Assembly: GCA_026004415.1 (NCBI GenBank) | Contig: BPJC01000003.1 | Coordinates: forward strand, 49,178-113,177 | DNA: 64,000 nucleotides | Source of the DNA: Patescibacteria group bacterium | GTDB taxonomy: Bacteria; Patescibacteriota; Microgenomatia; UBA1406; GWC2-37-13 | Reading direction: 5' to 3' | Shown: piece by piece, positions 2,272-64,000 of the stretch | Layout of the letters: each line of letters starts with the position of its first letter | Position numbering within the stretch: position 1 is the first letter of the stretch | Program-made: the position numbers and the translations under genes | The notes under the pieces: model-generated | The model's input: the letters and a program-made list of their open reading frames with translations, nothing else | Databases searched by the model: none | Told to the model about the DNA's origin: nothing

Positions 2272-3455
2272 AACCCCAAAGCAGAGATGCCTGGCAAATT
2301 GCCTTTTTCAATAAACTCCAGCATAGCTCCACCTCCGGTTGAGATATGATCAATTTTGTCAAGATACTCTTTTTTTGAGATTGCGGCTAAGGTATCGCCA
2401 CCTCCTACTATTGAAATTGCTGGAGTATTTTCGCAGATTGAGTAGTAAATAAAATCAGTTCCTTGTCTGTAGTTGGGGTTTTCTATATAACCTAAAGGTC
2501 CATTCCAAACAATTGTTTTTGACTGCATTATTATTGATCCAAATTTAGCTTTAGTCTCAGGTCCGATATCTAAAATTGATCTTTTTTCATCTTGAGGTAT
2601 TTGGTTTATTTTGACTACTTCACCTGCTGTTTTTTCATCGTCTGGGTAACCTAAAACAACATCTTCTGGCAGAATTATTGCTGTTCTGGTTTTAGCAGAT
2701 TTAAAAAGTATTTTTCTGGCTGTTTCAACAAAATCATATTCATAAAGGCTTTTTCCTATACCAAGACCTTGTGCAGAAAGAAAGGTATTGGCAATTCCTC
2801 CTCCTATAAGCAGATAGTCTGATATTTCCATAAGTTTATCTATAAGCATAATTTTAGTTGAGATTTTAGCGCCACCTAGTATTGCTGTAAATGGTTTGTG
2901 TCTTTCTGTAAAGATATACTTGTTTATTGTTTCTATTTCTTTTTTAAGCAGTAATCCACCGTATGATGGTAGATACTCTGTTATGCCTACTGTTGATGCA
3001 TTTACTCTGTGGCTTACTCCGAATGCGTCATTTACATAAACATCAGCCAACTCTGCCAGTTTCTTGCTAAATTCAGGGTCGTTGTTTGACTCTCCTTTGT
3101 AGAATCTAATATTTTCAAGTACATAGATTGTTGGTTCTTTCTGGTGTTTTATTTTATTGTTTTCAGTTAAAAAATCACTGATAAGCTCAATGTTGATGTC
3201 AGGTAGATACTCTTTTAATCTTTGTACTACTGGTTTTAGCGAGTATTTAGGGTCCCGTTTTTCTGGCCTGTCAAGGTGAGATACCAGTATAATGGTATTG
3301 TTTCTTTTTAATAGATACTCAATTGTTTCCAGACTTTGTTTGATCCTATAATCATCTGCGATTTTAAAGTCTTTGGTTAAGGTTACATTGAAATCTACTC
3401 TTAATAGTACTTTTTTATTTTGTATATCGGTATGATCAATATAAGTAATTGACAT
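2268..3455 (-). CDS. pgk: Phosphoglycerate kinase
   Basis: 395 aa; LLRVDFNV near the N-terminus, GGGDT and STGGGAMLEF C-terminal PGK motifs. Confidence 0.95.
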   Translation of the reverse strand: MSITYIDHTDIQNKKVLLRVDFNVTLTKDFKIADDYRIKQSLETIEYLLKRNNTIILVSHLDRPEKRDPKYSLKPVVQRLKEYLPDINIELISDFLTENNKIKHQKEPTIYVLENIRFYKGESNNDPEFSKKLAELADVYVNDAFGVSHRVNASTVGITEYLPSYGGLLLKKEIETINKYIFTERHKPFTAILGGAKISTKIMLIDKLMEISDYLLIGGGIANTFLSAQGLGIGKSLYEYDFVETARKILFKSAKTRTAIILPEDVVLGYPDDEKTAGEVVKINQIPQDEKRSILDIGPETKAKFGSIIMQSKTIVWNGPLGYIENPNYRQGTDFIYYSICENTPAISIVGGGDTLAAISKKEYLDKIDHISTGGGAMLEFIEKGNLPGISALGF

Positions 3456-8821: not shown

Positions 8822-9653
8822 ATGTTTGATACGCATTGCCATCTTAACTTTAAAGCATTTGAGTCCCAGGTTGATGATATTATCAAAGAATCTAAAAACT
8901 ATGGGGTTTATTATTTTATGATACCAGGCACAGATTATGCAACAAGCAAAAGAGCGGTTGAGATATCTGAAAAGTATAAAAATGCATTTTGTTCTGTAGG
9001 TTTGCATCCGCATCATATATATGAGTTTGTTCAAAAAAACATAGATATAGATGATTATGATTTTATAGGTTTTATTAAGGTTTTAGTTGAGTCAGATTCT
9101 GTTAAGGCTATAGGTGAAGTTGGGTTTGACAGACATGTGTATACTAAGACAAAGTATCAGAATTATAAAGTTAATGAAGTTTTTTTGAGTTTACAAAAAA
9201 AGTTGTTTATTAAGCAGTATGATATGGCACTTAAATTAGACAAGAGTTTAATAATTCATTGCAGAGAGGCTGAATCTGATTTGTTGGCTGTACTTGGCGA
9301 TGTGTGGGATAGCAAGATGCAAGGTAGAGCAGTGTTTCATTGTTGTCCCTGCCAGCGGAGATTTGCTTAAGTTTGCTTTAGAGCAAAAAGTTTTTATTGG
9401 AGTTGATGGAGATGCAACCTATGATCCCAGAAAACAGGCTTTTATTAAAAAAGTTCCGTTAGACTTATTAGTTTTGGAGACAGACTCTCCTTTTTTAATG
9501 CCTGAACCTATAAGATCTGAAAGGAGATTTCCAAATACACCAGCAAATTTAAGGTATATTGCCGAGATATGCGCTTATCTAAAAGATTTAAGAGTAGATG
9601 AAATAGTAAGAATTACCACTGAAAATGCATTTAAATTATTTAGATTAAAATAA
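8822..9653 (+). pseudogene. tatD: TatD-family metal-dependent hydrolase/DNase, interrupted by a single frameshift
   Basis: ORF 8822..9370 starts MFDTHCHLNF and runs to AVFHCC. ORF 9294..9653, one frame over, continues PASGDLLKFALEQKVFIGVDGDATY...LVLETDSPFL. The switch is at ~9344-9350 (TGTCCCT). Confidence 0.75.
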
Positions 9654-48906: not shown

Positions 48907-50625
48907 ATGTATGCTATAAATCAAACTGATTTAATAAACAATCTTCTTCAAGAAGGTCTTGACGCAAGGCTTTTGGAAAATGCTAGATTAGAGTCATTAA
49001 AAAAGGATATACCTTTTGACGATTATTTGTTAACTAATACAGATATTGATAAGAAAAAGATTTATAGCGCAATTGCAAAAACAATGGGCACTACCTATGT
49101 TGATTTAGATGAAATGGCAAGTGATCCACAGGCATTGGCTTTTGTTCCAGAAATTATTGCAAGAAAGTATGATTTATTGCCAGTAAAGTATAATCAGAGC
49201 CTTGATGAGATCGTAACTGCAGTAGTTGATCCATTAAATTTATCGTTAAAAGACTTTTTGGAAAAAAAGACAGGAAAAAAAATTAGGTTCGTTCTGGCAG
49301 AAAAAGATAAAATAAAATCTAAAATTGATATGTCTTACAGCCAAAGAATCTCTCCAGAGGTCTTGGCGGCTTTAAAAGAGGTTGAGGGAGAGAGTGTGGA
49401 CTCAACTGTTCAAAAGAAAATTGAAACAGTCAATCGTGAAGCTCCTATTGCGCGTATAGTCAACACAATTTTAGAGTTTGCTGTAAAAAGTAGAGCGTCT
49501 GATGTGCATATTGAGCCATTGGAAGACAGAACTCGCGTTCGTTATAGAATAGATGGTATTTTGACTGAGAAATTAGTTTTGCCTAGAAGTATTCATTCTG
49601 CTTTGGTTTCTCGTATCAAGATTCTTTCAGATATGAAGATCGATGAGAAAAGAGTTCCTCAAGATGGCAGGTTTGCTTTTTCTTTAGGTTCTGAAGAAGT
49701 AGATTTGCGTGTGTCAACTTTGCCGTCAGTTCACGGTGAAAAAGTAGTTATGAGACTTTTGAAAAAAACAGGAGGTATACCAGATTTGCCTGCATTAGGT
49801 TGGAGAGGACCACAGTTAAAATTAGTTGAGGAAGCAATTAGAAAACCTTATGGCATAATTTTGGTTACAGGTCCTACAGGTTCAGGTAAGACAACAACAT
49901 TGTATTCTGTGTTAAACAGGCTGAATAAACCAACAGTTAATATTGTTACATTGGAAGATCCAGTTGAGTATCAGATTCCAGGCATTACACAAGTTCAGGT
50001 CAATCCTCAGGCTGGTTTAACATTCGCCAATGGATTACGGGCATTTTTGCGACAAGATCCAGATATCATTTTGGTAGGAGAGATTAGAGACAAAGAAACA
50101 ACGCAATTAGCTATACAAGCCGCTTTAACAGGCCATTTAGTTTTTTCAACTTTACACACCAATGATTCAGCAACAGCAATTCCTCGTTTGTTGGATTTAG
50201 GAGCTGAGCCTTTTCTAGTCGCGTCTGTGTTGGAAATATCGATTGCTCAAAGAATTGTTCGTAGAGTTTGCGAGGATTGTAAAGAAGAGTATGAGCCTAA
50301 ACAAGAGATCATAGATAACATAAAAACAGTTTTAGGAGATCTGTTACCAAAAAAATATCAAGATGGAACTGAAAAAATAAAACTAACTAGAGGAAAAGGT
50401 TGTAAAGAGTGTGGGGATACTGGTTATAGAGGTAGAATTGGTATTTTTGAAGTTTTAAAGGTAACTCCTGAGGTTACGAATTTAATACTAAATCACTCTG
50501 CTTCTGAAGATATTATGAAGGTTGCTAAATCCCAAGGAATGATGGAGATGATACAAGATGGTTACTTAAAGGCTCTTGATGGATTAACCACTATTGAGGA
50601 GGTTTTAAGAGTTTCAGAAGCTTAA
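48907..50625 (+). CDS. pilB: Type IV pilus assembly ATPase (PilB/GspE family)
   Basis: Walker A GPTGSGKTTT, DPDIILVGEIRD, GHLVFSTLHTN, and tetracysteine CEDC...CKEC zinc motif; 572 aa. Confidence 0.9.
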   Translation: MYAINQTDLINNLLQEGLDARLLENARLESLKKDIPFDDYLLTNTDIDKKKIYSAIAKTMGTTYVDLDEMASDPQALAFVPEIIARKYDLLPVKYNQSLDEIVTAVVDPLNLSLKDFLEKKTGKKIRFVLAEKDKIKSKIDMSYSQRISPEVLAALKEVEGESVDSTVQKKIETVNREAPIARIVNTILEFAVKSRASDVHIEPLEDRTRVRYRIDGILTEKLVLPRSIHSALVSRIKILSDMKIDEKRVPQDGRFAFSLGSEEVDLRVSTLPSVHGEKVVMRLLKKTGGIPDLPALGWRGPQLKLVEEAIRKPYGIILVTGPTGSGKTTTLYSVLNRLNKPTVNIVTLEDPVEYQIPGITQVQVNPQAGLTFANGLRAFLRQDPDIILVGEIRDKETTQLAIQAALTGHLVFSTLHTNDSATAIPRLLDLGAEPFLVASVLEISIAQRIVRRVCEDCKEEYEPKQEIIDNIKTVLGDLLPKKYQDGTEKIKLTRGKGCKECGDTGYRGRIGIFEVLKVTPEVTNLILNHSASEDIMKVAKSQGMMEMIQDGYLKALDGLTTIEEVLRVSEA

Positions 50626-50788
50626 ATTGGAGATTTAATTATTAATTTTTAGTTCTTAATTCTTAGTTCTTAATCAAATTATAACTATTAATTCTTAATT
50701 ACTAAACAGTTTAGAAATTAAAAATTAAACATTAGCAATTGAATATGAACTAGAAATTTAGAAATTAGAAATTAGAAACAAATCATTT

Positions 50789-52558
50789 TTAATTGATAAT
50801 TAACCAATTGAATTTAACTTCTTTATTATTCTTTTCAGTTATATAAACCTCAAAGTAGCCTTCTTCTTGTTTTGATACTGTCAGTTGTCCTTTAAGCTCT
50901 GCTGAGTTAGGAGTTAGGTAAATCAATGAATTGCTGTTGGCTTTATTAGAGTAGATTCTTACTGTTTGGCTGTTTTCAGGTATTATGCCAATACCAGCTG
51001 TTTGGTTTTCTGTAAGTATCTGCGCTGATTCTGTTGATAAAGGATCTATAGTGTCTGCCAAAATAAAGTTTGCAGAGTCACTGGCTGGGATATATTTTTC
51101 TAATCTAATCTCATTAAATTTGGCACTGCCTTGATTGTCAATGCTGGCTACTTCTTGATCTTGGCTATTTTTAATACTTAATTTATTCTCATTTCCATTT
51201 AGCTTAATTGTTAAGTTTTGGTCTGGTTTTGACTCCAAAGATTCAGTTTTGATGCCTTTGGCTATTATAACACCTGTTGTTGTAATATCACCGTTTTTGC
51301 TTATTGCTACTTGATTGTCAAAAAAGACAATTCTTTTTTCAGCTGTTAGGTTAAGTTCTTCGTTTATCGTCATTATTTTGTTTTGTTCAATGTAGATGTT
51401 ATTTACAGCCAAAGAGTTTAAAGCTATAAGGTTGGTGGTAGTTATAGTGTTTTTGGCATTTAGATAATTTGTGTTTATGAAATCAGCTTTTAGCTCTGGA
51501 TTTAATTTTTGGTAATACCCAACATCAGGTAGGCTAGAGTTGTTGACATCAGCTAGTAGTTGTTGAATCTCATTTATTCTTTCATAGAGTGGTTTGTCGT
51601 CTTCGTTAGTGCTTTGGTTATTGTTGTCATTGCTTATGATCTGGTTTAATCTTTGTTCTATCTGATTGATCTGTGTTTGAATGTTTTCTGCTTCGATTTT
51701 TTTAGCTTTTAAAGTGTCTGTTTGCACTTCTTTGGCAGTTATCGTTCCGCTAAAACTTGCGTTGCCATTGCCATCTATTACGACTGTGTTTTTACCATCA
51801 AAGTTGTTTAATATCAGTTGGGATAATTTGCCTTTGTTAGTATCTGATTTTAATTTCAGATCACCAGTTATCGTTGTCTTTTTCTCGTCTGTATTAAACT
51901 CTGCCACCGTTTGATTATTTGTGTCTGTTATTTGTATTTTGGAGTTTTCTGTTGTTGTTCTTATTTTAGAGTCTTTATTAGTTAGATTAAGTTGACCAGT
52001 CTCTACTACTGGTGATATAAAATTATCAGAGGTGTTTATAACTCTTTGGTTGGCCAAGTAATTACTTATTCTTTCATCTATGTAATCTGATAATTTCTTG
52101 CCAGCTATAGTTAAGTTGTCTGTAGTTAAATGAAGATTTTCAGCTACAATAGATTTTGTCAGCAGGGCATTGTTTACGATCAAATTTTCTGTTTCTATAA
52201 GTCCAGCTTTTATATTGGCAGTAATTACTTTAGCAAATCCACTGATTCTTGTGATTGTGTCTCCTGTTATTGTTTTCAGATTATATAGCTTGGATTTTAA
52301 GTTAGAGACTTGGTTTTGATAATTTAAACTGGAGTTGTAAGTATATTGATCAACAGGTTTTTCAAGTATAACATCACCTTCTGAGTTTAGACTAATTAAG
52401 TTTTTCAGATTTTCAATTTGGTCTTGTTGTTCTTGGATTGCTTTTATGGAAAAAGGTATTACTTCGGTATATGACAATGTTTTATATCCTTCTCCTGTTT
52501 TATGAACTATTGATGGCAAAACTTCTTCAATATTTTGAGCAATAAAGCCAAAATGCAT
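50789..52558 (-). CDS. C-terminal fragment of a giant surface-fibre gene: second half of an S74-type intramolecular-chaperone domain plus a ~500-aa extension
   Basis: Begins MHFGFIAQNIEEVLPSIVHKTGEGYKTLSYTEVIPFSIKAIQEQQDQIENLK, the conserved core of the endosialidase-chaperone (Peptidase_S74) domain. The frame is open upstream to LKPVSYYWDLENYPNNGFDEK, and joins the previous fragment if one A is removed from the A8 tract at 52621-52628. Confidence 0.7.
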   Translation of the reverse strand: MHFGFIAQNIEEVLPSIVHKTGEGYKTLSYTEVIPFSIKAIQEQQDQIENLKNLISLNSEGDVILEKPVDQYTYNSSLNYQNQVSNLKSKLYNLKTITGDTITRISGFAKVITANIKAGLIETENLIVNNALLTKSIVAENLHLTTDNLTIAGKKLSDYIDERISNYLANQRVINTSDNFISPVVETGQLNLTNKDSKIRTTTENSKIQITDTNNQTVAEFNTDEKKTTITGDLKLKSDTNKGKLSQLILNNFDGKNTVVIDGNGNASFSGTITAKEVQTDTLKAKKIEAENIQTQINQIEQRLNQIISNDNNNQSTNEDDKPLYERINEIQQLLADVNNSSLPDVGYYQKLNPELKADFINTNYLNAKNTITTTNLIALNSLAVNNIYIEQNKIMTINEELNLTAEKRIVFFDNQVAISKNGDITTTGVIIAKGIKTESLESKPDQNLTIKLNGNENKLSIKNSQDQEVASIDNQGSAKFNEIRLEKYIPASDSANFILADTIDPLSTESAQILTENQTAGIGIIPENSQTVRIYSNKANSNSLIYLTPNSAELKGQLTVSKQEEGYFEVYITEKNNKEVKFNWLIIN

Positions 52559-52574
52559 TTTTTCATCAAAGCCA

Positions 52575-54209
52575 TTATTTGGGTAATTTTCTAGATCCCA
52601 GTAATAGCTTACTGGTTTTAATTTTTTTTATTAAATCTATTGAGTTTTCAATAGGAGTTATATTTTTTTTCCATCTTTTATCAGAAGGTAAATAACTTCC
52701 AGTTGTGTAAACATTTCCTGTGAAATAACCAGCATAGCAGGTGTAACCTGAAGGGCAGGTGCTATTTACAGATCCTACAATTCCGGCGGCATAGTTCGAT
52801 AAATCATTTTGGTAGCCTATGCCACCGGCAGTAAGCCAGTTATTTCCTGCAGAGTTTAATAAGGTTCCATGAATTGCAACTCTGTAATTAGAACTAGTAC
52901 TTGTTCCTAATTCTTTAGCTATTGCTTCTATGGTGTGGTAACTTCCTGATGAAACAGATGGATCATAAGCATAAATCGATGTAAGTGCGTTATTTGTAGT
53001 ATAAGGAAGGTTTGTTGTTGATGATTTAGCTACATGTAAAATACTATCTGGGTTTGTAAGACCTATTCCAACATTTCCTCCACTTGGGTTGATTATAAAT
53101 TTGGTAGGAGAGTTAGAACTATTATACGCTTGTAGGCCGGTTACACTTGAAACATTTCCAAACAATATATAATCTCCGCTTCCAATAGTTGATCTTATTG
53201 AACCTTGTACATCAAGTTTATACTGCGGATTCGTCGTCCCGATGCCGACATTGCCAGTGTCAACAGTAATTGAACCATCTCTAAAAGATATTTGAGGATC
53301 TGTTGTGCCAGTGTTGTAAGTCCAGGTGAAGACAGAGCCGGAACCCCAAGTTACAGAGGCAAGTTCAGTTGGATCAAAGGCAACAGTTGGAGACCATCCT
53401 TCACCTGCAGTTCCTGTAACATCAATATAATTTCCCGCAGTGATTCCAGCAACATAATTGCCGGTAGTTTCTGATCCTAAGGCAATACAATTTGTACATG
53501 TTATTCCTCCATCTGCATTTATATCTCCTGAGAAATAAGCCGTACCTGCAACATATAGTTTATATGATCCCGGACTCGTCGTTCCGATGCCGACATTGCC
53601 AGTGTCAACAGTAATTGAACCATCTCTAAAAGATATTTGAGGATCTGTTGTGCCAGTGTTGTAAGTCCAGGTGAAGACAGAGCCGGAACCCCAAGTTACA
53701 GAGGCAAGTTCAGTTGGATCAAAGGCAACAGTTGGAGACCATCCTTCACCTGCAGTTCCTGTAACATCAATATAATTTCCCGCAGTGATTCCAGCAACAT
53801 AATTGCCGGTAGTTTCTGATCCTAAGGCAATACAATTTGTACATGTTATTCCTCCATCTGCATTTATATCTCCTGAGAAATAAGCCGTACCTGCAACATA
53901 TAGTTTATATGATCCCGGACTCGTCGTCCCGATGCCGACATTGCCAGTGTCAACAGTAATTGAACCATCTCTAAAAGATATTTGAGGATCTGTTGTGCCA
54001 GTGTTGTAAGTCCAGGTGAAGACAGAGCCGGAACCCCAAGTTACAGAGGCAAGTTCAGTTGGATCAAAGGCAACAGTTGGAGACCATCCTTCACCTGCAG
54101 TTCCTGTAACATCAATATAATTTCCCGCAGTGATTCCAGCAACATAATTGCCGGTAGTTTCTGATCCTAAGGCAATACAATTTGTACATGTTATTCCTCC
54201 ATCTGCATG
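52575..54209 (-). pseudogene. Middle fragment of the giant surface-fibre gene (contains the 3 x 115-aa repeats; no start codon of its own until TTG 53165)
   Basis: The minus-strand frame is open from 54209 to 52575. It encodes three identical 115-aa units (...GNVGIGTTSPGSYKLYVAGTAYFSGDINADGGITCTNC...), then ...GNVGIGTTNPQYKLDVQG..., and ends PSDKRWKKNITPIENSIDLIKK, the start of the S74 domain. The track only reports 52575..53165. Confidence 0.7.
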
Positions 54210-54256
54210 TTATATCTCCTGAGAATATAAGCCGTACCTGCAACATATAGTTTATA
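53222..54256 (-). repeat. Three head-to-tail 345-bp (115-codon) near-perfect tandem repeats inside the giant gene
   Basis: Positions p and p+345 are identical over ~53240-53911 except one mismatch (53238 C vs 53583 T). This is reflected by three identical antisense ORFs at 53292, 53637 and 53982. The top copy carries two extra bases (G 54209 and T 54226). Confidence 0.95.
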
Positions 54257-57200
54257 TGATCCCGGACTCGTCGTCCCGATGCCGACGTTGCCTGTCGCAA
54301 AATAACTATTTCCTCCTGAACCATCTAACCAAATATTGGTAATAATTGAAGGATAGGAACCAAGCGTGACCGTCATTGGTCCTATTCCTATCGCTTTGTT
54401 TACTCTTAAATTGGCGTCATCCCCTGAAGTTTGTAAAAACATTGTTGGTACGGTATTTCCAGTTGCGGTATTGGTATGAATCCAGGCCGGGCCATAGCCC
54501 GTTCCATCATCAGTATAATGAAGGTAAGTTTCAAATGGATAAGTTCCAGATTTAATAATTCCACCATAACCGGTCATACCTATTCCACCAATCCAGATGT
54601 TACCTGCTACTGATAATTTTTCACTAGGATTCGTCGTTCCGATGCCGACGTTGCCCGCTACTGTTAAACCTGCCCAGGGTGACTGTGTTCCGTAGTTGTA
54701 TCCTACACTTAGCGCTCCTGTATATACTTGTGCACCAGAGCTGCCGTAACCAAATCCTATTGCTGTTCCAGAATCATATTCTCTAAGCCAAATATTATTA
54801 ATCCTTATATCTCCTCCTTGAACATCCAACTTCGCCCCCGGATTCGTCGTCCCGATGCCGACGTTGCCTGTTGTTTGTGCAAGTATTGCTCCGCCAGAGA
54901 TTCTTAGAGAGTATCCGTTCATACCAGTACCTGCAGGATCTAATCCAAAGTTTTGGTCAGATTTGTCTAAGAATTTTTCTGCTATTACTGAATTGTTTAC
55001 AGTCAATGACTCTGTGGTTAAATTGGTTGAATATAAAGATCCATTAACATATAGTTTATAAGAACCCGGATTCGTCGTCCCGATGCCGACATTGCCCGAA
55101 GCTGTTATTCTCATGACTTCATTACCTGTATCCGCTCTATTACCATTCCAAGTAACACCAGATCTAAATGTTAGTGGTACATTTCCTCCGACTCCTTCCC
55201 AGCTAATAATAGCTCTTCTTTCTCCTGTAGTATCAGAAACGTCCAAACCTATTGTAGCATCGCCAGTATTACCAACAATTGCAGAAACGACTTGTCCATC
55301 ACCTTGAACCTGTAATTTTTGAGCAGGCCCCGTAGTCCCGATGCCGACGTTTTCTGATTTTATTACCATCTCCGGATCAGACACTCCATCCCCCTGGTTA
55401 AAAACCAGAGGATTTCCTGCACCAAGCCCTTGATCATCCATCCCTATTGTCCAACGGACTGAACTTCCATCTCTAAATTTTATTACTGGATCAGACAAAC
55501 CCGCACCATTCATAAGTATATTCCCGTTGTATACTGTAAGCTTTTCTCCTGGACCCGCCGTCCCAATTCCCACATAACCTGTTGCCCCTTCAATAAACAT
55601 TCGGGTACTAAAACTAAATGTATTTCCACTAGTTAATCCTGTATTTGCCCTAAATTGTATATTTCCATTTGCAAGGAATACTGCAGAGGCTGCATCACTC
55701 CTTGCTGTAAATGACCCCATGTCATGGGTTGCTCCTGCAGTAATGTGCCCCCAGTCAGCATCTGAAGTATATCCGCCTCCTCCTAAAAACAAACCACCTG
55801 AGGTTGTGCCTCCCATGGTGCTTGTTTGCAGGTATAACCCTCCGCCTTGACCATGTTGGACTAGTGCAGCCTCGTTAAGTCCTGTTTTAATATGAAGTCT
55901 CGCCCCTGGACTCGTTGTTCCGATGCCTACATTGCCGGAGGTGTCTATTCTGACAGCTTCAGTCCAATTATCAGTCATAAATCTTAATTGCCCTCCAGTT
56001 TCATCAGAACCGAGACTTAACAGATTTGAATTAGTGTCATAAACTACGTTGGCTACCTGGGTTCCATTTTCTGCCATACTAAATGCAGCTTGATATCCAG
56101 TTGTAGTGTCTGCTTGGATATAAGAGTGAGCTGTTGAATCATATTTAATGCCTATAGTTGATGATCCGGCTATATGCAATTTGTACACTGGACTTGTCGT
56201 TCCGATGCCGACATTGCCATTCATAATTTCAATATCTCCGTCTGTTTGAATTTTTAATCCTTCTACCCAAGTAATATTTGTGTCAGCTGTGCCTGATACT
56301 GCATATCTAAGGCTTATGTCTCCTGTAGATGGCATCGCAATATTTTGTGCTGTTCCAGTATTAGTGTATTTCCAGTTTGATCCATCCCAATAAGCGTTTC
56401 TAGTAAAGAAAGATCCGTTTGCCGCTTGAAGCAAATGAGTTAAGTTCTCAATTTGTAATTTAGATTTTGGATTAGTTGTTCCTATACCAACATTGCCACT
56501 GGCATCTATGACAAATGGAGTTGTGTCTGAGTCTCCTGTTTCATCGTTAACTCTAAAAGAAAATCCTGATCCTAAATTGGTAATCATTAAAGGAACTGCG
56601 CTAGAGTTACTGTTTGTTGCTAGTTTTAAAAGATTTCCTGTTCCTCCTGATGTTGTGGGTGAGTGGTTTATTTCTAAAATTGAGCCAGAAAGTCCTGATG
56701 AGGTAGAGGAGAGGTAAAGAGATCTGCCTGATGTTAGAGAGTTAGCGTTTATAGTAAAAAAATTCTGAGTGCTTGCAGATGTGTTAAAGGTCGTGGTATA
56801 GGTGGAGTGATTGAGTGTTAGGTTGTCTGTTGGGTCAAGCAAGTCGTCCCAGTATAGCGAGTTTGCAGTTATGTTAGTAGTCCAAGATAAAATTCCTGTT
56901 GCATCTGTTTTAAGGTATCCGTTAGCATTTATTGAAGTAGGTAGGGTGTAGGTAATATCCGCTGTTTGGGTTCCAGTTACAAAAGTTGTTGAGTATGCAT
57001 TGTCTCCGGCGCTGATTAAATCGATTTTGCCTGCAGTGTTGTTTGTGCCTGTTGAGGCATCTAATCCTACAGTTATGCCAGAAGAACCTGATATGTGAAG
57101 ATGCGTTGCTGGAGCTGTAGTGCCGATGCCAACATTTCCTGATGTGTCTATTATTACTTGAGGTGTAGTAGCCGCATTTGTTCCAAGACCTAAATACCTT

Positions 57201-59248
57201 GAAGCTGTAGCTTGGATATAAAAAGTGCTGTTTCCTCCTAAATCTACTCCCATTATATTGCCTAAGTTCGTGTTTGTGTTATATCTAAAGTTGATTAGCT
57301 GAATTGGTGTTGGTGATAATGTATCTGTTATAGCTATTCTTGAGAACTGTGTAGCAGAGGATAATATATGGAGTTTACCTGCAGGTGAAGCTGTTCCAAT
57401 TCCTACATAATTATTTGTAGTATCAAAATTTAATAAACCTGATTCTATATTCAATGCAGTTGTTGAGTTTGCTAAATCCCAGCTTATAGCTGATGTAGAT
57501 GTCCAGTTAGAATCTGAAAAAGTAGTTGTTTGATCTGTTAAGATATTTCCAGTTATTATGCCAGATGAGGTTGTGATATTGCCTGAGGTTATAATAGAGC
57601 CATTGTTGGTTAGTCTGAAGATATTAGAGGCAGTTGAGGCTCCATTTGATGCAACTAAAATATCTTGGTCACCTTTTTCCCATAAAGAAACTAAAGCTTT
57701 TCCAGTAATAGCTCCTTCAACCTCTAGTTTGTGTACTGCTGTTGTATCTCCGATTGAGACTTTATTGGAGGTAGTATATAGATAAACATTACCTGATGTC
57801 TCAGTCCATGGAGAGATTGATGAAGCAGTTGCAAACTCTAATCCTGTTTCTCCTGAGTTTACTTTTACAAAATAACCAGCTGACCCTGTATAACTGGAAG
57901 GAGTGTCTGTAAGGTCCAAAAAAGATAAGTCATTATCAAAAGCTAAATCTCCGAGCGTTCGTTTTACTAAATTGTTTGAAGAATTTATCATTATGGCTGT
58001 TTGATCTGTCGTAGATGTTGTTAGTCCAGAAAAATTTACTGTGTTTGTAGCGCGCAATGTTCCATTTATATCTAAAGTATAACTTGGATTTATAATGCCT
58101 CCAAGTCCGACATTTCCAGTTCTGTCTATTACAAATACTTGTTGAGTTGTTATTAAGTTACTAGTAGTTATTCTGAAAAGATCATTGCTATCTGATACTC
58201 CAAGACTCCAGTCTTTATTTTCACCATTGTCTCTAAAATGAATATATGTGTCTGCACCGGTTCCTCCTGCAATTGATAGTTTAATTACTGCATCAGAGTC
58301 TTGAATTTCTTGATATATGTCTAAAAGTTGAGCAGGTGTTGAGGTTCCAATACCTACATTGTTGGCAATATAAGCTCCATAGTTATTATCTGCGCCTGAG
58401 ACTGTGTCTACATATAATCCCCAGTTATTTGTTTCAGTTCCTGTAGATCCTGTAAAATCTCCAGTTGAAGTAATGTAAACTCCATATTTGTTGATTCCGT
58501 TTGTGGTAGTATTTGTAGTTGAGTTATTTATAATATTTGCATAATTAGATGAGGTAACTGCTCCTGATGAGAGAATATACAGTTTTGCAGTTGGATTAGT
58601 TGTTCCAATACCGACATTGCCTGTTGTTTGGGCTAGAATTGCTCCTGCCAATGTTCTTAGAGAGTAGCCTCCCATATCAGTACCTGCTGGGTCAAGACCA
58701 AATGTATTATTTGTATAGTCTAAAAATCTTTCTCCAATTATATCTCCAGTAGAGGTTATGCTTCCTGTTGCCATACTGGTAGCATAGAGTGAGCCATTGA
58801 CTTCTAATTTGTAATTAGGATTGGTTGTGCCAATACCTACATTGCCTAGGTTGTCAATAATCATTCTTGTTTCTGTATCTGTTGCTCCTTGCGTGCGGAA
58901 TTTTATTGTACCGCTCTCTGTTGCCTGCAAAACAATATCTCCTGTGCCAGCTGAGGCAATAGTAACTATATTTGCGCTTGATATCTCAAAGTTAGCACTT
59001 TCATAGGTTGATCTGATAGCAGGGTTAGCTAAAGCCAGCATCATATCTCCAGCTGAGTTAATGTATGGAATAAAAGGCACAGCAATAGAGCCATCGTCTG
59101 GAGGCAGGCCTTGAAGAGTTTCTGCATTAATTGCATAACCAACATTAGCTATTGGCTGTCTTGGCGTCATCTCAGGATCTGATCCAACCGTGACTCCTAA
59201 ATAAACCTCTGTATTTTCTGTAAAGACAGAGTTGTCAATTTCAGACAT
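54191..59248 (-). CDS. Giant secreted fibre/adhesin-like protein fragment (1685 aa) with ~15 GNVGIGTT(N/S)P-x-x-KL-x-V motifs
   Basis: Very Gly/Thr/Ser/Asn-rich. The motif GNVGIGTTNP..KL.V recurs at irregular spacing, as in tail-fibre-domain proteins that end in S74 chaperone domains. The frame stays open ~330 nt upstream of the first ATG and encodes a TM helix there (KAFALYLGGLFLIIAGSIIAYGVY). Confidence 0.8.
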   Translation of the reverse strand: MSEIDNSVFTENTEVYLGVTVGSDPEMTPRQPIANVGYAINAETLQGLPPDDGSIAVPFIPYINSAGDMMLALANPAIRSTYESANFEISSANIVTIASAGTGDIVLQATESGTIKFRTQGATDTETRMIIDNLGNVGIGTTNPNYKLEVNGSLYATSMATGSITSTGDIIGERFLDYTNNTFGLDPAGTDMGGYSLRTLAGAILAQTTGNVGIGTTNPTAKLYILSSGAVTSSNYANIINNSTTNTTTNGINKYGVYITSTGDFTGSTGTETNNWGLYVDTVSGADNNYGAYIANNVGIGTSTPAQLLDIYQEIQDSDAVIKLSIAGGTGADTYIHFRDNGENKDWSLGVSDSNDLFRITTSNLITTQQVFVIDRTGNVGLGGIINPSYTLDINGTLRATNTVNFSGLTTSTTDQTAIMINSSNNLVKRTLGDLAFDNDLSFLDLTDTPSSYTGSAGYFVKVNSGETGLEFATASSISPWTETSGNVYLYTTSNKVSIGDTTAVHKLEVEGAITGKALVSLWEKGDQDILVASNGASTASNIFRLTNNGSIITSGNITTSSGIITGNILTDQTTTFSDSNWTSTSAISWDLANSTTALNIESGLLNFDTTNNYVGIGTASPAGKLHILSSATQFSRIAITDTLSPTPIQLINFRYNTNTNLGNIMGVDLGGNSTFYIQATASRYLGLGTNAATTPQVIIDTSGNVGIGTTAPATHLHISGSSGITVGLDASTGTNNTAGKIDLISAGDNAYSTTFVTGTQTADITYTLPTSINANGYLKTDATGILSWTTNITANSLYWDDLLDPTDNLTLNHSTYTTTFNTSASTQNFFTINANSLTSGRSLYLSSTSSGLSGSILEINHSPTTSGGTGNLLKLATNSNSSAVPLMITNLGSGFSFRVNDETGDSDTTPFVIDASGNVGIGTTNPKSKLQIENLTHLLQAANGSFFTRNAYWDGSNWKYTNTGTAQNIAMPSTGDISLRYAVSGTADTNITWVEGLKIQTDGDIEIMNGNVGIGTTSPVYKLHIAGSSTIGIKYDSTAHSYIQADTTTGYQAAFSMAENGTQVANVVYDTNSNLLSLGSDETGGQLRFMTDNWTEAVRIDTSGNVGIGTTSPGARLHIKTGLNEAALVQHGQGGGLYLQTSTMGGTTSGGLFLGGGGYTSDADWGHITAGATHDMGSFTARSDAASAVFLANGNIQFRANTGLTSGNTFSFSTRMFIEGATGYVGIGTAGPGEKLTVYNGNILMNGAGLSDPVIKFRDGSSVRWTIGMDDQGLGAGNPLVFNQGDGVSDPEMVIKSENVGIGTTGPAQKLQVQGDGQVVSAIVGNTGDATIGLDVSDTTGERRAIISWEGVGGNVPLTFRSGVTWNGNRADTGNEVMRITASGNVGIGTTNPGSYKLYVNGSLYSTNLTTESLTVNNSVIAEKFLDKSDQNFGLDPAGTGMNGYSLRISGGAILAQTTGNVGIGTTNPGAKLDVQGGDIRINNIWLREYDSGTAIGFGYGSSGAQVYTGALSVGYNYGTQSPWAGLTVAGNVGIGTTNPSEKLSVAGNIWIGGIGMTGYGGIIKSGTYPFETYLHYTDDGTGYGPAWIHTNTATGNTVPTMFLQTSGDDANLRVNKAIGIGPMTVTLGSYPSIITNIWLDGSGGNSYFATGNVGIGTTSPGSYKLYVAGTAYILRRYNMQMEE

Positions 59249-59528
59249 TCCGCAGTCAGAGCCAATAATAACATTTATTACTCCGTCTTGGTCAGGTACA
59301 ACTCCATTAGCTCCAGTACAAGAACCTGTGTATAAAACATTTCCTCCAGTTGAACTATCGTAAAGTTTAAAGACAATATCTGTAGCAGTGGTTATTGGGT
59401 TGCCTAAAGAGTCAGTTAGTCTACCCTGAAAAGAAATTGTTCTGCCAGCTCTCTTAAGGTCTGTAGGATAAGCTAATGTTGGCTGGTTGTTGTTTGATAA
59501 TTTGTTATAAACTCCATAAGCAATTATA

Positions 59529-59837
59529 CTACCTGCTATTATTAAGAATAACCCACCAAGATATAAGGCAAAAGCTTTGTTTGCAATATACTGTTTTGTA
59601 CCTTGTTCTTAAATCAATTAAAAATCTTTGAAAAGAAATATATTTTAACTCATATACTGTTTTGCTTATTGTCTGTCTTAATTTCTTATACTCAGAATCA
59701 GAAATGTTTTTTTGGTCAAGTAAAAACTCTAGATAATAATTTAATGAGGTTAATTTCTTAATCTTTTCTTTTTTTGACAGCTTAAAATTGTTCAAGCCGT
59801 TAATGTATCTAAGAAATAAGTTTTCATAGTTTCTCAT
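59529..59837 (-). CDS. Small ORF, probably the displaced N-terminus of the giant gene
   Basis: This 102-aa ORF overlaps the startless upstream extension of the giant ORF. Removing one A from the AAAA run at ~59590 fuses ...LIDLRTRYK to QYIANKAFALYLGG... (cytoplasmic domain, then TM, then the giant ectodomain). Confidence 0.45.
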   Translation of the reverse strand: MRNYENLFLRYINGLNNFKLSKKEKIKKLTSLNYYLEFLLDQKNISDSEYKKLRQTISKTVYELKYISFQRFLIDLRTRYKTVYCKQSFCLISWWVILNNSR

Positions 59838-60026
59838 ATGGATTACCTTCTACTGCTGGATTAAAATAATCATTTATAATCCTAAGAGAAAAAGTTATGT
59901 AATACTTTATTGCTTTATAATCAAAATTGATTTTTTTTAGGCTTTGTTACAGTTAAACTTTCGTTTGGTCTGTCAAATAGATTGATTGATTTTTTTAATT
60001 GCAAACTACTAGTTTTTAACATATTG

Positions 60027-60533
60027 TCAATTAGAAGTTGAAACTGCTAACATTTCATTAATATCATCTAGGATTGTTCTAATAGTATCTTCGCTCAAAT
60101 TGTGTTTTTCTTTTAGAAATCTTGAAAACATTAGTTGTTGTTTTTTAATCTGAAGGTCTGTCGATAGGTTAGTAATTTGTCCTATGTTTTTATCATTAAT
60201 ATAATTTTTGAAGATACAAAACTGAAAAAATCTTCTTATGCTTGAGATTCTTCTGTCAATTGTACTTACAGGAACTTTTTTGGCAAACAAGTCTGTTTTA
60301 TATGATTCTAATAGGTCTTTGTTAAGCCATTTAAAAATAGAGATAGAATCTTGCGCAGTAGTGCTGTTGTGTTCTATAGCTTGTTTTAAAGCCCAATATA
60401 AAAAATGTTTAGTGTCAGAAATATAGTTTCTAATACTTGACTTTGCTATGGGATTATCTGCTAATTTATTTTGGTTAATTAGATAACTCTTAAATAAACC
60501 AAGTATATTAGATATATTAGATGTTTTTTTCAT
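60027..60533 (-). CDS. Stand-alone phage-integrase N-terminal SAM-like (core-binding) domain protein
   Basis: 168 aa; KSSIRNYISDTKHFLYWA ... VPVSTIDRRISSIRRFFQFCIFKNYINDKN matches the core-binding domain pattern of tyrosine recombinases. No catalytic domain follows. Confidence 0.5.
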   Translation of the reverse strand: MKKTSNISNILGLFKSYLINQNKLADNPIAKSSIRNYISDTKHFLYWALKQAIEHNSTTAQDSISIFKWLNKDLLESYKTDLFAKKVPVSTIDRRISSIRRFFQFCIFKNYINDKNIGQITNLSTDLQIKKQQLMFSRFLKEKHNLSEDTIRTILDDINEMLAVSTSN

Positions 60534-60980
60534 ATACTCAAATCATAATACAATAATAATAGAGTTGTCAAGAGTTATTTTGATATATTTTGAGATATAT
60601 AAAGTTTAACGACTGTGTGCTGTTTTAAAAGTAGAGAAGAGCTTGTAGTATTATATAATTATATTTAAATTATTTCCCGCATTATGTTTATGTGTCACTA
60701 TGGAGGTTTATAATGTATATATTTACTTATAGTAATTATATCCTGGTATAAATATTAATCTGATTTGTGTTTGTACAATTTAATTTAATTTAATTAAAAT
60801 TTAAGGTGGCTTTTGAGGTGTTCTTGTTATTAATTTGTTATCTTAGTATAAAGGCTTAATTTATAATTTTATTTATATTTAATTCATAATTTAATTTGAG
60901 GCTTAAGGTTAGTTTGACTGTTTTGTATTTTTCTATACTCTTTTAAGCATTCGTAAATAAAATATTCTAAAATATTAAGA

Positions 60981-61973
60981 ATGAAGAAATTTTTTTCTAT
61001 TTTCTCAGGTGTATTATTTTTCATTTTTTTTGCAGAAAGTGTTTATGCTCAAAGATTAAGTTTATCTATTTCACCACCTTTGGTTGAGTTAATTATTAAG
61101 CCATCAAAATCTGTTTTAGTTGCTTTTACTATTACTAATAACTCTGATCCTGTTTTATTAAAAATTAATCTAAAAAGTTTTAAGCCATTATCTGATACTG
61201 GCACTATTCTAGTTAAGGAAGGGTTAGAGGGTCCAATTAATTTTAATTTGGAAAACTCTGTTATAGATTTCTCTAAACCTTTTATGCTTGATAAAAATCG
61301 AAAAGAACAAGCATTGCTTAAAATCTCTGTTCCGCCTAATGCTCCTGAAGGAGACTATTATTATACTTTGCTTGTAGAGTCTATTCCAGAACAGGGTTTA
61401 AACTCGACCTCGGTTGTTAATAAAGCAAGTATTGGAGCTAATATAATAATAACTGTAACAGACGATGGTTCTATTGAAATAAAGCCTAAAATAGCCTTTT
61501 TTGGTGTGTTGCCAGAGTATAAAGTTAATCTTTTCGGCCGTAACATATATATATTTGATTCTTTTTCTGAGATTCCGGTTATCCTAAAGGTTGCTAATAC
61601 TGGAAAAAACTTTTTTCAGCCTAATGGTTTGATAACTGTTGAAGGTCTATTTGGTCTGACAAGCAGTTATTCTCTTTTGCCCCAAAATGTATTGGCTTAT
61701 TCTGATCGCATAATCTATGCTTCAGACTCTGCAGGAGTAATTAAAAAAGATTATAAAGACAAAACAGTATCTTATGTGTTATCAGATCTTATTTTTGGCA
61801 GGTATAAATTAAGAGCTGAGTTAAGTTTTGGTCAAAATAATGATAGTAAATTATTTGCAGACTCTGAGTTCTATGTTTTTCCAATAAAGATAGCTTTGGC
61901 TGTTGCAATAGTCTTTTTTGTTTTTTTTATCTTAAAAGCTTTTTTTATTAATAAAAAAAGTAAAGATGCCTGA
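60981..61973 (+). CDS. Hypothetical cell-surface protein (signal peptide + C-terminal TM anchor)
   Basis: MKKFFSIFSGVLFFIFFAESVYA signal, a beta-rich body, and a C-terminal hydrophobic helix followed by KKSKD. Architecture is like Gram-positive DUF916-type surface proteins (weak). Confidence 0.5.
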   Translation: MKKFFSIFSGVLFFIFFAESVYAQRLSLSISPPLVELIIKPSKSVLVAFTITNNSDPVLLKINLKSFKPLSDTGTILVKEGLEGPINFNLENSVIDFSKPFMLDKNRKEQALLKISVPPNAPEGDYYYTLLVESIPEQGLNSTSVVNKASIGANIIITVTDDGSIEIKPKIAFFGVLPEYKVNLFGRNIYIFDSFSEIPVILKVANTGKNFFQPNGLITVEGLFGLTSSYSLLPQNVLAYSDRIIYASDSAGVIKKDYKDKTVSYVLSDLIFGRYKLRAELSFGQNNDSKLFADSEFYVFPIKIALAVAIVFFVFFILKAFFINKKSKDA

Positions 61974-62730
61974 TGTTAATTATTTTGCTAATATTAATAC
62001 ACTATATTTGCATCAACCTTATGCAAGTTTGTTAAACGGGATAATCTTTGGCATAGAGCTTAAAACTTTAGAAGAATTTTTTTTACAACTTAAAAAGGTT
62101 GGTTTACTGCATATTGTTGTTTTGTCAGGAATGAATATAAGTCTTTTATCTGCTTTTGTTTCAAGACTAACTATTAGATTTGGCAGATATATCTCGAGTC
62201 TGTTTAGTATAATAGCTATCATTTGTTTTGTTTTATTTGTAGGACCTGAAGCCCCAATTGTAAGAGCTGGAATTATGGCGATTATTGCTCACGTAGCAAT
62301 TATATATGGATTTAAAACTTATTCTTTATATCTTTTATTTTTATCTGCAGTTATTTCTTTATTAGTAAAACCAGATTGGTTAATGAGTATCTCTTTTCAG
62401 CTTTCATACTTTGCTGTTTTAGGTATTGTGCTTTTCTCTAAGAGTTATAAGAGGGTAGATGGTTTTATTAATAATTTAATCCGTGACCTTAAGATTGAGT
62501 TGCGCACTTCTTTATCAGCCCAAGTCTTTACTTCTCCTTTGATATTTTTATACTTTAAAGAATTCTCATTGATCTCGCCTATATCAAACCTTCTTACTGC
62601 AGGTTTAATTGCTCCTATTATGATTTTAGGTTTTTTATCTGCTTTTTTAGGAAGTATTAATTATTATCTTGGTCTGCCATTTGCTTGGTTAGCTTATCGG
62701 TTTGTTGCGTTACTTAGTTTTTGTAATTGA
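61966..62730 (+). CDS. comEC: ComEC/Rec2 competence channel domain
   Basis: ASLLNGIIFGIE...GLLHIVVLSGMNISLL and multiple TM segments are typical of the ComEC competence domain. The end of the ORF looks frameshifted: an alternative frame continues ...RYLVFVIEVLANIPFGFFDFK. Confidence 0.75.
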   Translation: MPDVNYFANINTLYLHQPYASLLNGIIFGIELKTLEEFFLQLKKVGLLHIVVLSGMNISLLSAFVSRLTIRFGRYISSLFSIIAIICFVLFVGPEAPIVRAGIMAIIAHVAIIYGFKTYSLYLLFLSAVISLLVKPDWLMSISFQLSYFAVLGIVLFSKSYKRVDGFINNLIRDLKIELRTSLSAQVFTSPLIFLYFKEFSLISPISNLLTAGLIAPIMILGFLSAFLGSINYYLGLPFAWLAYRFVALLSFCN

Positions 62731-62807
62731 GGTTCTTGCAAATATTCCATTTGGATTTTTTGATTTTAAATAAGCTATGTTAGATCAGGGAGTTAATAGT
62801 AAATCCT

Positions 62808-63684
62808 TTGTTATTGTCGGTCTTGTTTTCTTTATTTATTTTATGTTTTTATATAGTTAAGTATTCTTTTTTTACAAACGATTTTTTTGTTGTCTGTGAT
62901 GTTGGCCAGGGTGATGGTCTCTACTTTAGAGTTAATAATAATGATATTATTATTGATTCAGGTTCTGGAAGAGATATGTTGTATTGTTTGGGAAAGTATA
63001 TGCCGTTTTGGGATAAAAAAATTGAGTTGGCTTTGTTAACACATCCTCAAAAAGATCATTATGGAGGATTTTTATTTATTTTAGATGAGTACAACATTGA
63101 CAGATTTATTTTGCCGTCTGTTTATAATTCTAAGGCTGAAAGTTATAAACAGTTTCTATCAAAGTTGTACAGTAAAGCTGTTATTAAAAAAGAAGTCTTG
63201 TTTTCTGGTGATTATATTAATATTGGAGACTCTGCTGTACTTTTGCTGTTCTGGCCAAGCAAAGGTTTTGTTAATGAAAACATTGTTAAGAGTAATGCTT
63301 TAGCCTTTGATAATAAATACTTTTATGATACAAGCCTTGATCTGAATCTATTTTCCTACACAGGGCTATTTTATACAACTAAGGGGGATAAAAGAGGTTT
63401 TACTAACAGGAGATATTAACAAAGAAATACTAGTTTCACTGCTGAAACAATATAACTCACTTGTACAACAGGTTGATTACTTAAAACAACCTCATCATGG
63501 CTCAAAAACAGGTTTTGATGATAAGATTTTTAACTTAGCAAAGATAGATAATGTTTTGATAAGTGTTGGAACAAGCAATCCTTATGATCATCCTAGTGAT
63601 GATCTGATTGATTATTTAAACTTAAATAAAATCAATTTCTTAAGAACAGATATCCAAGGAGATATTGTTATCAACTTAAATTAA
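62808..63684 (+). pseudogene. ComEC C-terminal metallo-beta-lactamase-fold domain, split by a frameshift at a G5 run
   Basis: FVVCDVGQGDGLYF...IIDSGSG...LTHPQKDHYGG sits in ORF 62808..63419. The next frame continues (K)GIKEVLLTGDINKE...QPHHGSKTG...NPYDHP... to the TAA at 63682-63684. The junction is at GGGGG 63383-63387. Confidence 0.7.
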
Positions 63685-64000
63685 TATATTGTATTCGTGA
63701 TATTAACTTAATTTGTAAATAACTTAACGGATAAATATCTGATATAAATTATATTGATATATTAATTACTTTATATCCGTTTTTAAATATAACTTGACAA
63801 TTAATAAATCGTTTGTTAACTTTAATTTATGGGTGTTAGAGATAATCAGACTAAAATTCTTTTAGGAATCTTCTTGTTAGGATCAGAAAAATTTGAACCT
63901 GTTAAACTTAGATGAGACTTTTTGCTAGTTTAACTGATCTTAACAATAAATGAAAGGACTAAGGGATTTTTGTCTTCTTTAGTTAAAGAATCTTATTTGG

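Follow-up and report, generated by a model that had tools for sequence, protein, structure and literature searches.

The window analysed here, a 64,000-nucleotide stretch (C3:49178-113177) of the 1.0-Mb genome (32% GC, 14 contigs) of a Patescibacteria group bacterium, carries on its minus strand a gene for a putative giant surface fibre, deposited as four overlapping stop-to-stop frames (59849-59529, 59608-54191, 54209-52575, and 52627-50789; all positions are those of the window unless a C1 or C3 contig prefix is given). Skipping four bases, namely the insertions at junctions 1, 2a, and 2b and one T of the run at junction 3 (Table 1), yields a single open reading frame (ORF) of 3,014 codons, as anticipated by an earlier note on this DNA, whose junction positions fall within a few bases of the sites pinned here. 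The middle segments, to which that note gave no start codons of their own, lack early starts: the first ATG of segment 2 is 120 codons in, with no start codon before the transmembrane (TM) helix, and the first start of segment 3 is a TTG 348 codons in. In another species of the genus, whose genome is called G001 here, the ortholog is an uninterrupted frame of 2,148 codons, giving a 2,144-amino-acid (aa) protein from the first ATG, which has none of the frame shifts and is flanked by the same two genes, one pilB-like and one for a 171-aa SAM-like protein. Because the four-base skip gives a single ORF and the G001 ortholog is intact in the same context, we read the four frames as the remains of a single giant surface-fibre gene in the ancestral state.

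The architecture of the read-through product agrees closely with what the earlier note had described. The expected head of about 90 residues followed by one TM helix measures 85 aa with a single helix, the approximately 20 GNVGIGTT motifs number 19, the three 115-aa repeats correspond to a 345-nt period, the S74 chaperone-like domain gives a full profile match, and the further tail of some 500 aa comprises 534 conserved residues. With Peptidase_S74 (PF13884), for which the cut-off is 22 bits, the read-through scores 64.5 bits and the halves as deposited 18.8 and 30.8 bits, and the catalytic S-D-x-x-x-K motif of the S74 family (SDxxxK; PMC10769870) stands at the start of the domain. Its relatives in the PDB include 6F45 (phage S16 gp37), 8JOV (a tail fibre), and 7DC3 (the MYRF ICA domain). 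Moreover, the PHROG tail-fibre families 9942, 18345, and 5668 match the protein with E values of 1.6e-38, 1.8e-33, and 6.4e-13.

The N-terminal ectodomain (N-domain) matches the NCBI model of the ~130-aa, beta-rich N-domain of the Bdellovibrio mosaic adhesive trimer (MAT) fibres, NF053851 Bdello_MAT_N, with 27.3 bits (E=2.7e-6; cut-off 60 bits), and the same model matches 22 of 24 N-domains of the family (best E=1.4e-9), with no score reaching the curated cut-off. AlphaFold2 (AF2) models it as a confident beta-sandwich, with a predicted local distance difference test (pLDDT) above 90 for model residues ~20-120. A fold search of the PDB with this model returned no close match and only weak, generic Ig-like ones (E>=0.017), in agreement with PMC10769870, according to which the PDB holds no structural homologue of the MAT N-domain. 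The NVGIGTT(S/N)PxxKL motif resembles the repeated V-G-...-P-...-L capping-loop motif of MAT fibres (PMC10769870). In place of a signal peptide directly before the N-domain, we found the head and TM helix. A SAM-like nature of the head, which was considered, was rejected, since it has no Pfam match even at E<=10 and BLAST revealed no significant similarity to the corresponding parts of relatives. As its relatives are phage tail-fibre families and, remotely, the N-domain of the Bdellovibrio MAT adhesin, the host-attachment role proposed by the earlier note appears reasonable, and the product would be a TM-anchored, MAT-like trimeric adhesin fibre, with trimerization, cleavage, and binding all predicted.

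Table 1. Features of the fibre gene and of its surroundings
Feature	Position	Strand	Basis or remark
Whole giant fibre gene	50789..59837	-	3,014 codons with four bases skipped; four frames as deposited
Cytoplasmic head, 85 aa	59588-59837	-	translation; no Pfam match
Single TM helix AFALYLGGLFLIIAGSIIAYGVY	59507..59575	-	translation; after the head
Ig-like beta-sandwich ectodomain (SFQGRLTDSLGNPI...), the family's most conserved	59141..59458	-	AF2; remote NF053851 Bdello_MAT_N match
Modular fibre region, 19 GNVGIGTT(N/S)PxxKL motifs	53226..58846	-	T 14%, G 14%, S 10%, N 8%
Eight exact GC-rich blocks GGCAAYGTCGGCATCGGRACGAC	53233..56218	-	starts 56218, 55096, 54868, 54655, 54292, 53945, 53600, 53255
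345-nt (115-aa) tandem repeat	53226..54292	-	3.1 copies, 99% matches; copies 2 and 3 in frame
Peptidase_S74 intramolecular chaperone, motif SDKRWK	52505..52685	-	Pfam profile
Conserved post-S74 tail, 534 aa, ending ...FNWLIIN	50789..52504	-	translation, G001 comparison
Junction 1, extra A between head and TM helix	59587	-	minus strand GTAT[A]TTGC; not a homopolymer extension
Junction 2 (2a and 2b), two private 1-nt insertions 17 nt apart	A 54226, C 54209	-	repeat copy 1
Junction 3, coding-strand A8 run (window T8)	52622..52629	-	one A fewer restores S74
168-aa recombinase SAM-like (core-binding) protein, upstream	60027..60533	-	PF02899
comEC-like gene	61966..63684	+	Pfam Competence and apparent metallo-beta-lactamase part; three 1-nt insertions versus G001
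Island 99.7-100% identical to G001 except swapped cassettes in the fibre gene	49468..63830	.	DNA comparison

Relatives are numerous, with 620 found at E<=1e-3 among 5.8 billion proteins; the best 120 listed are mostly of 2,000-3,100 aa, and the best-matching ones bear names (Woesebacteria, Roizmanbacteria, Pacebacteria) that put the genome among the Microgenomates-type Patescibacteria. Their common plan starts with a helical cytoplasmic head and a TM helix, continues with a conserved AYP...SFQGRLTDSLGNPI... domain and with variable modules in which GNVGIGTT motifs abound, and closes with S74 or an alternative and a tail. Within this plan, the SFQ[GA]RL motif of the N-domain occurs in 65 and the FNWLIIN C-terminal end in 55 of the 121 scanned relatives, many relatives carry S74, and a recombinase SAM-like Pfam domain is fused in the head of the giant protein in 27 of 119 listed relatives. 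The variation includes a 3,038-aa relative with an intein bearing an NYN-domain insert within the fibre, some relatives with ~1,000 residues of collagen-like GPTGxTG repeats, and many in which S74 is replaced by a '...DPPYTINGKKYATY...SYRLTAPRFD' domain. An exact-protein lookup of the tail found no further contig, and a metagenome scan returned one distant locus, at 35% identity.

The comparison with G001 revealed a mosaic gene. From mid-pilB to just past comEC, 14.4 kb of DNA are nearly identical between the two genomes, with flanks of 74-86% identity, which means a recent recombination or transfer or else a chimeric contig. Inside this island the fibre protein shares with G001 only segments (aa 1-433, 477-572, 1581-1856, 1657-1735, and 2481-3014), the DNA from 52394 downstream through the tail being 99.8% identical, and G001 has no counterpart of the interior cassettes, of the three repeats, or of the S74 variant. 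The limits of the shared pieces coincide with the motif: the motif at 58621 is the exact point where 100% identity gives way to 85%, and the pieces at 55096-54242 and 54868-54632 run from block to block. The idea of the earlier note that a recurring block could drive intragenic recombination thus receives direct support, because blocks mark both ends of the modules shared with G001, and fibre modules appear to be swapped at this conserved GC-rich sequence.

The block itself is an exact 23-mer, GGCAAYGTCGGCATCGGRACGAC, present in 8 of the 19 motif copies and confined, in the 1.0-Mb genome, to the fibre gene. The GC content at third codon positions (GC3) of the block motif is 0.7-0.9 in seven of the eight copies and 0.5 in the eighth, against ~0.2 in the flanks, and the block makes use of rare codons (GTC 9%, ATC 14%, ACG 4%). 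A foreign, high-GC origin of the modules was rejected, since high GC is confined to the motif codons and GC3 stays at ~0.2 in all flanks. Among 61 genomes of the family, the 23-mer occurs 39 times in eight genomes (seven genera) and its reversed control never, each time with unrelated flanks. Farther afield, at least 120 stretches, spread over many phyla of bacteria and archaea, and at least 120 viral contigs contain it. Its holders include many classes of the candidate phyla radiation (CPR), DPANN archaea, Elusimicrobia, Planctomycetes, Proteobacteria, and Acidobacteria, as well as phage and giant-virus contigs, and it often stands in several copies per locus.

That the block is the universal way of coding the motif was rejected, because only 6 of 244 motifs (2.5%) in an unbiased viral GNVGIGTT sample use it; this is still ~25 times the expectation (2.5% versus 0.1%). 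The block is, hence, an over-represented allele and not a universal one. Concerted evolution together with recombination at short GC-rich homology is the simplest reading of these data, and a dedicated DNA signal at the block is speculative. A further, tentative idea, to which we give rather little weight, is that the extended block GGCAAYGTCGGCATCGGRACGAC(GARTCC) is a DNA-level recombination linker, its synonymous sites kept identical through gene conversion or through selection at the cassette level, by which modules would move within and between genomes via DNA uptake and homologous recombination. CPR bacteria, DPANN archaea, other phyla, and phages may exchange modules in this way. Type IV pilus genes and comEC flank the fibre gene, and a part in the exchange might fall to the SAM-like domains of recombinase type that are fused to the giant genes or lie next to them.

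Each of the four lesions is a single inserted base. Junction 1 lies in ~510 nt otherwise 100% identical to G001. Both insertions of junction 2 are in repeat copy 1, whose motif block is also set apart from that of copy 2 by one synonymous T/C exchange, and are absent from copies 2 and 3; they lie 16-33 nt beyond the end of a G001-shared module. Junction 3 splits the S74 profile, of which positions 1-24 end segment 3 and positions 22-57 begin segment 4, and reads ...IDLIKKLKPVSYYWD... once one A is removed. The same type of lesion was found elsewhere. In comEC, insertions at ~62698, ~62813, and ~63395 fall in 1.8 kb with only ~4 substitutions relative to G001, and an intergenic run at 59931 is T8 here and T7 in G001, with zero substitutions in the surrounding 2.2 kb. 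A TatD DNase gene (8822-9653, plus strand) is split at ~9350 by an inserted T (CCC[T]GCC) into halves covering positions 1-154 and 161-253 of the Pfam profile, its G001 ortholog being one ORF of 281 aa. On contig C1, a gene (C1:187256-188795, minus strand) whose product ends in a presumably LytR_C-like sequence, as judged by eye, is split by a 1-nt insertion (GTA[G]AAAC) in a region only 78% identical to G001, where the ortholog is one ORF of 509 aa.

Altogether, ten indels were found, the genome-wide screen being crude and overlooking cases such as tatD, so that the counts are those of the cases found, and all ten are +1 (four in the fibre gene, three in comEC, and one each in tatD, the intergenic DNA, and the C1 gene), with zero deletions. 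The inserted base differs from both neighbours in eight of the ten, often inside a short run (T[A]TT, AA[C]A, G[A]GG). Relative to G001, the interval 58600-62100 carries two insertions and no substitution, and ~8 kb of DNA that are otherwise 99.7-100% identical carry five indels for ~12 substitutions. Neither replication slippage nor the decay of pseudogenes, which is biased to deletions, has this spectrum. Since all the lesions are 1-nt insertions, mostly outside homopolymers and several in DNA nearly identical to G001, an error is favoured, and we regard an assembly or consensus error as the likely origin of the four frameshifts. The two insertions 17 nt apart in one repeat copy fit a locally poor consensus. 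The fibre gene would thus probably be intact in the organism, and the statement of the earlier note that it is broken becomes doubtful, the same lesion type being found in comEC, tatD, the intergenic T-run, and the C1 gene.

The most serious alternative is a real and very recent pseudogene, with the fibre gene (as well as comEC and tatD) lost by frameshift and its fragments non-functional. The four frameshifts are indeed present in the deposited sequence, the TM helix of segment 2 has no start codon ahead of it, several functionally related genes are affected, and the lesions fall in few genes while ~45 other genes of the window look intact, as purifying selection would give. Pseudogene decay in bacteria is, however, biased to deletions, and the ten insertions are accompanied by none and are mostly not of the slippage type. 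Moreover, indels are about as frequent as substitutions in DNA near-identical to G001, one insertion sits in intergenic DNA, and the pair in a single repeat copy leaves the other two copies clean, so that we consider a genuine loss of the gene possible but unlikely. Expression could also be rescued by recoding or phase variation, through transcriptional or translational slippage at the A8 run of junction 3 and +1 frameshifting or four-base decoding elsewhere. Runs of this type can slip in transcription in AT-rich reduced genomes. A search of junctions 1, 2a, and 2b revealed no slippery sequence and no shared four-base word, leaving junction 3 as the only homopolymeric one, and G001 has none of the shifts. 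Four-base or +1 decoding was dropped on the lack of a common word, and as four independent events would be required per molecule, a rescue of this kind is highly improbable.

Assembly could, on the other hand, have done more than insert bases. The contig may be a chimera or consensus of two co-occurring strains, with module order, G001-like island, and indels all assembly products, the indels arising where reads of different variants were merged. The contrast between the island (49468-63830) and the 74-86% identity of the rest of the genome, the position of junction 2 so close to a module boundary, and perfect 345-nt repeats and shared 23-nt blocks that are hard to assemble all speak for it. 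Against this, the interior cassettes, three repeats, and S74 variant are absent from G001, so that a distinct allele exists; the island edges lie inside pilB and past comEC in colinear gene order, as homologous replacement predicts; and the assembly is without paralogs or duplicate contigs. We thus consider a chimera improbable, an estimate that overlaps with that for sequence error. A mis-assembly from several paralogs, which the earlier note had raised, is unlikely as well, since tblastn against the genome of the contig found no paralog of the fibre gene, and this idea was rejected because the sole other match is an unrelated 674-aa gene with a shared N-domain. In any case, frameshifted giant repeat genes in metagenome-assembled genomes need read support before being called pseudogenes.

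We propose a model in which a TM-anchored giant fibre, module exchange, and frameshifts of assembly origin are combined, and which we hold, as a whole, to be on balance probable. The architecture, the homologies, the intact G001 ortholog, the type and spread of the insertions, and the block-bounded shared modules are direct observations, and trimerization, cleavage, the role as an adhesin, and the error origin are predictions. A short cytoplasmic head and one TM helix anchor the protein in a CPR, Microgenomates-like cell, with an Ig-like base domain, a remote homologue of the MAT N-domain, after the anchor. A long stalk of tail-fibre-like modules follows, each opened by the GNVGIGTT(S/N)PxxKL motif, and after it the S74 chaperone/protease domain and the conserved 534-aa tail. 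Three chains are predicted to trimerize under the control of S74, which would then cut at S|D in SDKRWK, leaving a TM-anchored trimeric fibre that may touch the surface of a host or prey cell. Homologous recombination at the conserved GC-rich motif block would exchange modules, and the four frameshifts would be residual single-base insertion errors of the assembly in a gene that is itself intact.

Several points weigh against this model. The insertions are clustered, with eight in 52.6-63.4 kb and one found in the first 50 kb, which a uniform error process does not predict; fibre, comEC, tatD, and C1 genes could form a coherent attachment and DNA-uptake set under relaxed selection; and the error origin of the insertions is inferred from sequence comparison. 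As to the fibre itself, the match to the MAT N-domain remains under the NCBI cut-off (27 versus 60 bits), and S74 does not form the C-terminus, as it does in proteins that release it after trimerization, about 534 conserved residues following it here. The AF2 model of the tail is poor (pLDDT 48.7), too poor for a fold search, and the models are monomeric and cannot show a trimer such as the intertwined homotrimeric beta-helix/prism of MAT fibres.

The neighbours of the fibre gene are pilT/pilC/pilB-like genes, the SAM-like protein, and comEC, in the same context as in G001, which does not make the locus a phage or prophage one. The 168-aa protein upstream is not a full tyrosine recombinase, as it contains only a SAM-like domain (PF02899, E=8e-9; XerC/D models cover positions ~10-100) and has no catalytic domain; the stand-alone SAM-like gene is also kept next to the fibre gene in G001. 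Elsewhere on the contig, the 674-aa gene, the second with a MAT_N-like domain, lies in C3:155020-159998, with a protein of at least 984 aa bearing an M23 peptidoglycan endopeptidase domain encoded downstream, and the two could make up a module for attack on the host wall.

A life attached to host cells is generally assumed for CPR bacteria, and little is known of the machinery by which they attach. Our study sheds light on TM-anchored giants of the MAT-like or tail-fibre-like kind, widespread in Microgenomates-type genomes and with hundreds of relatives of 2,000-3,100 aa in Patescibacteria, as a concrete candidate for host recognition. The fibre gene adds a new form, giant and TM-anchored, to the adhesins of the tail-fibre/MAT kind, and its broken state is probably artefactual. 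What merits further work is the block-delimited exchange of modules, since such mosaicism between two genomes of the same genus provides a testable mechanism for fast change of host range.

Among the closest known systems are the MAT fibres of Bdellovibrio bacteriovorus, a superfamily described by Caulton et al. 2024 (PMC10769870; NCBIfam NF053851). Both appear to have a conserved beta-rich base domain near the envelope. The tail-fibre-like stalk, in which a V-G-...-P-...-L loop motif recurs, the SDxxxK-bearing S74 chaperone, and the mosaic, swappable tips are common to both, and both belong to a bacterium living on other bacteria. In contrast to the MAT fibres, the protein described here is ~3 times longer, is anchored by a TM helix and cytoplasmic head instead of a signal peptide, has an internal S74 with a conserved 534-aa tail after it, matches the N-domain family below its cut-off, and is associated with recombinase SAM-like domains. 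The fibres and spikes of phages with S74 (K1F endosialidase, T5 pb1, and S16 gp37; PF13884) share with it the S74 domain, at 64.5 bits, the same Ser-Lys catalytic spacing, and modules matched by PHROG tail-fibre families, whereas the gene here is chromosomal, between type IV pilus genes and comEC and with no phage genes nearby, and its product is membrane-anchored with a non-terminal S74. The mosaicism recalls the adhesin genes of T-even phages, which reportedly swap specificity by recombination between conserved motifs, as attributed to Tetart et al. in 1998. In both cases, short conserved motifs flank variable modules as crossover points, but the conserved element here is an exact GC-rich 23-mer, kept at the level of synonymous sites in an AT-rich genome and spread over many phyla and viruses. 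Finally, very large predicted surface proteins have been proposed to serve host contact in Vampirococcus lugosii (PMC8080830). With such giants of CPR and DPANN epibionts, for which no shared domain architecture was established, the fibre protein has in common its great size, its predicted place at the surface, and a reduced genome.

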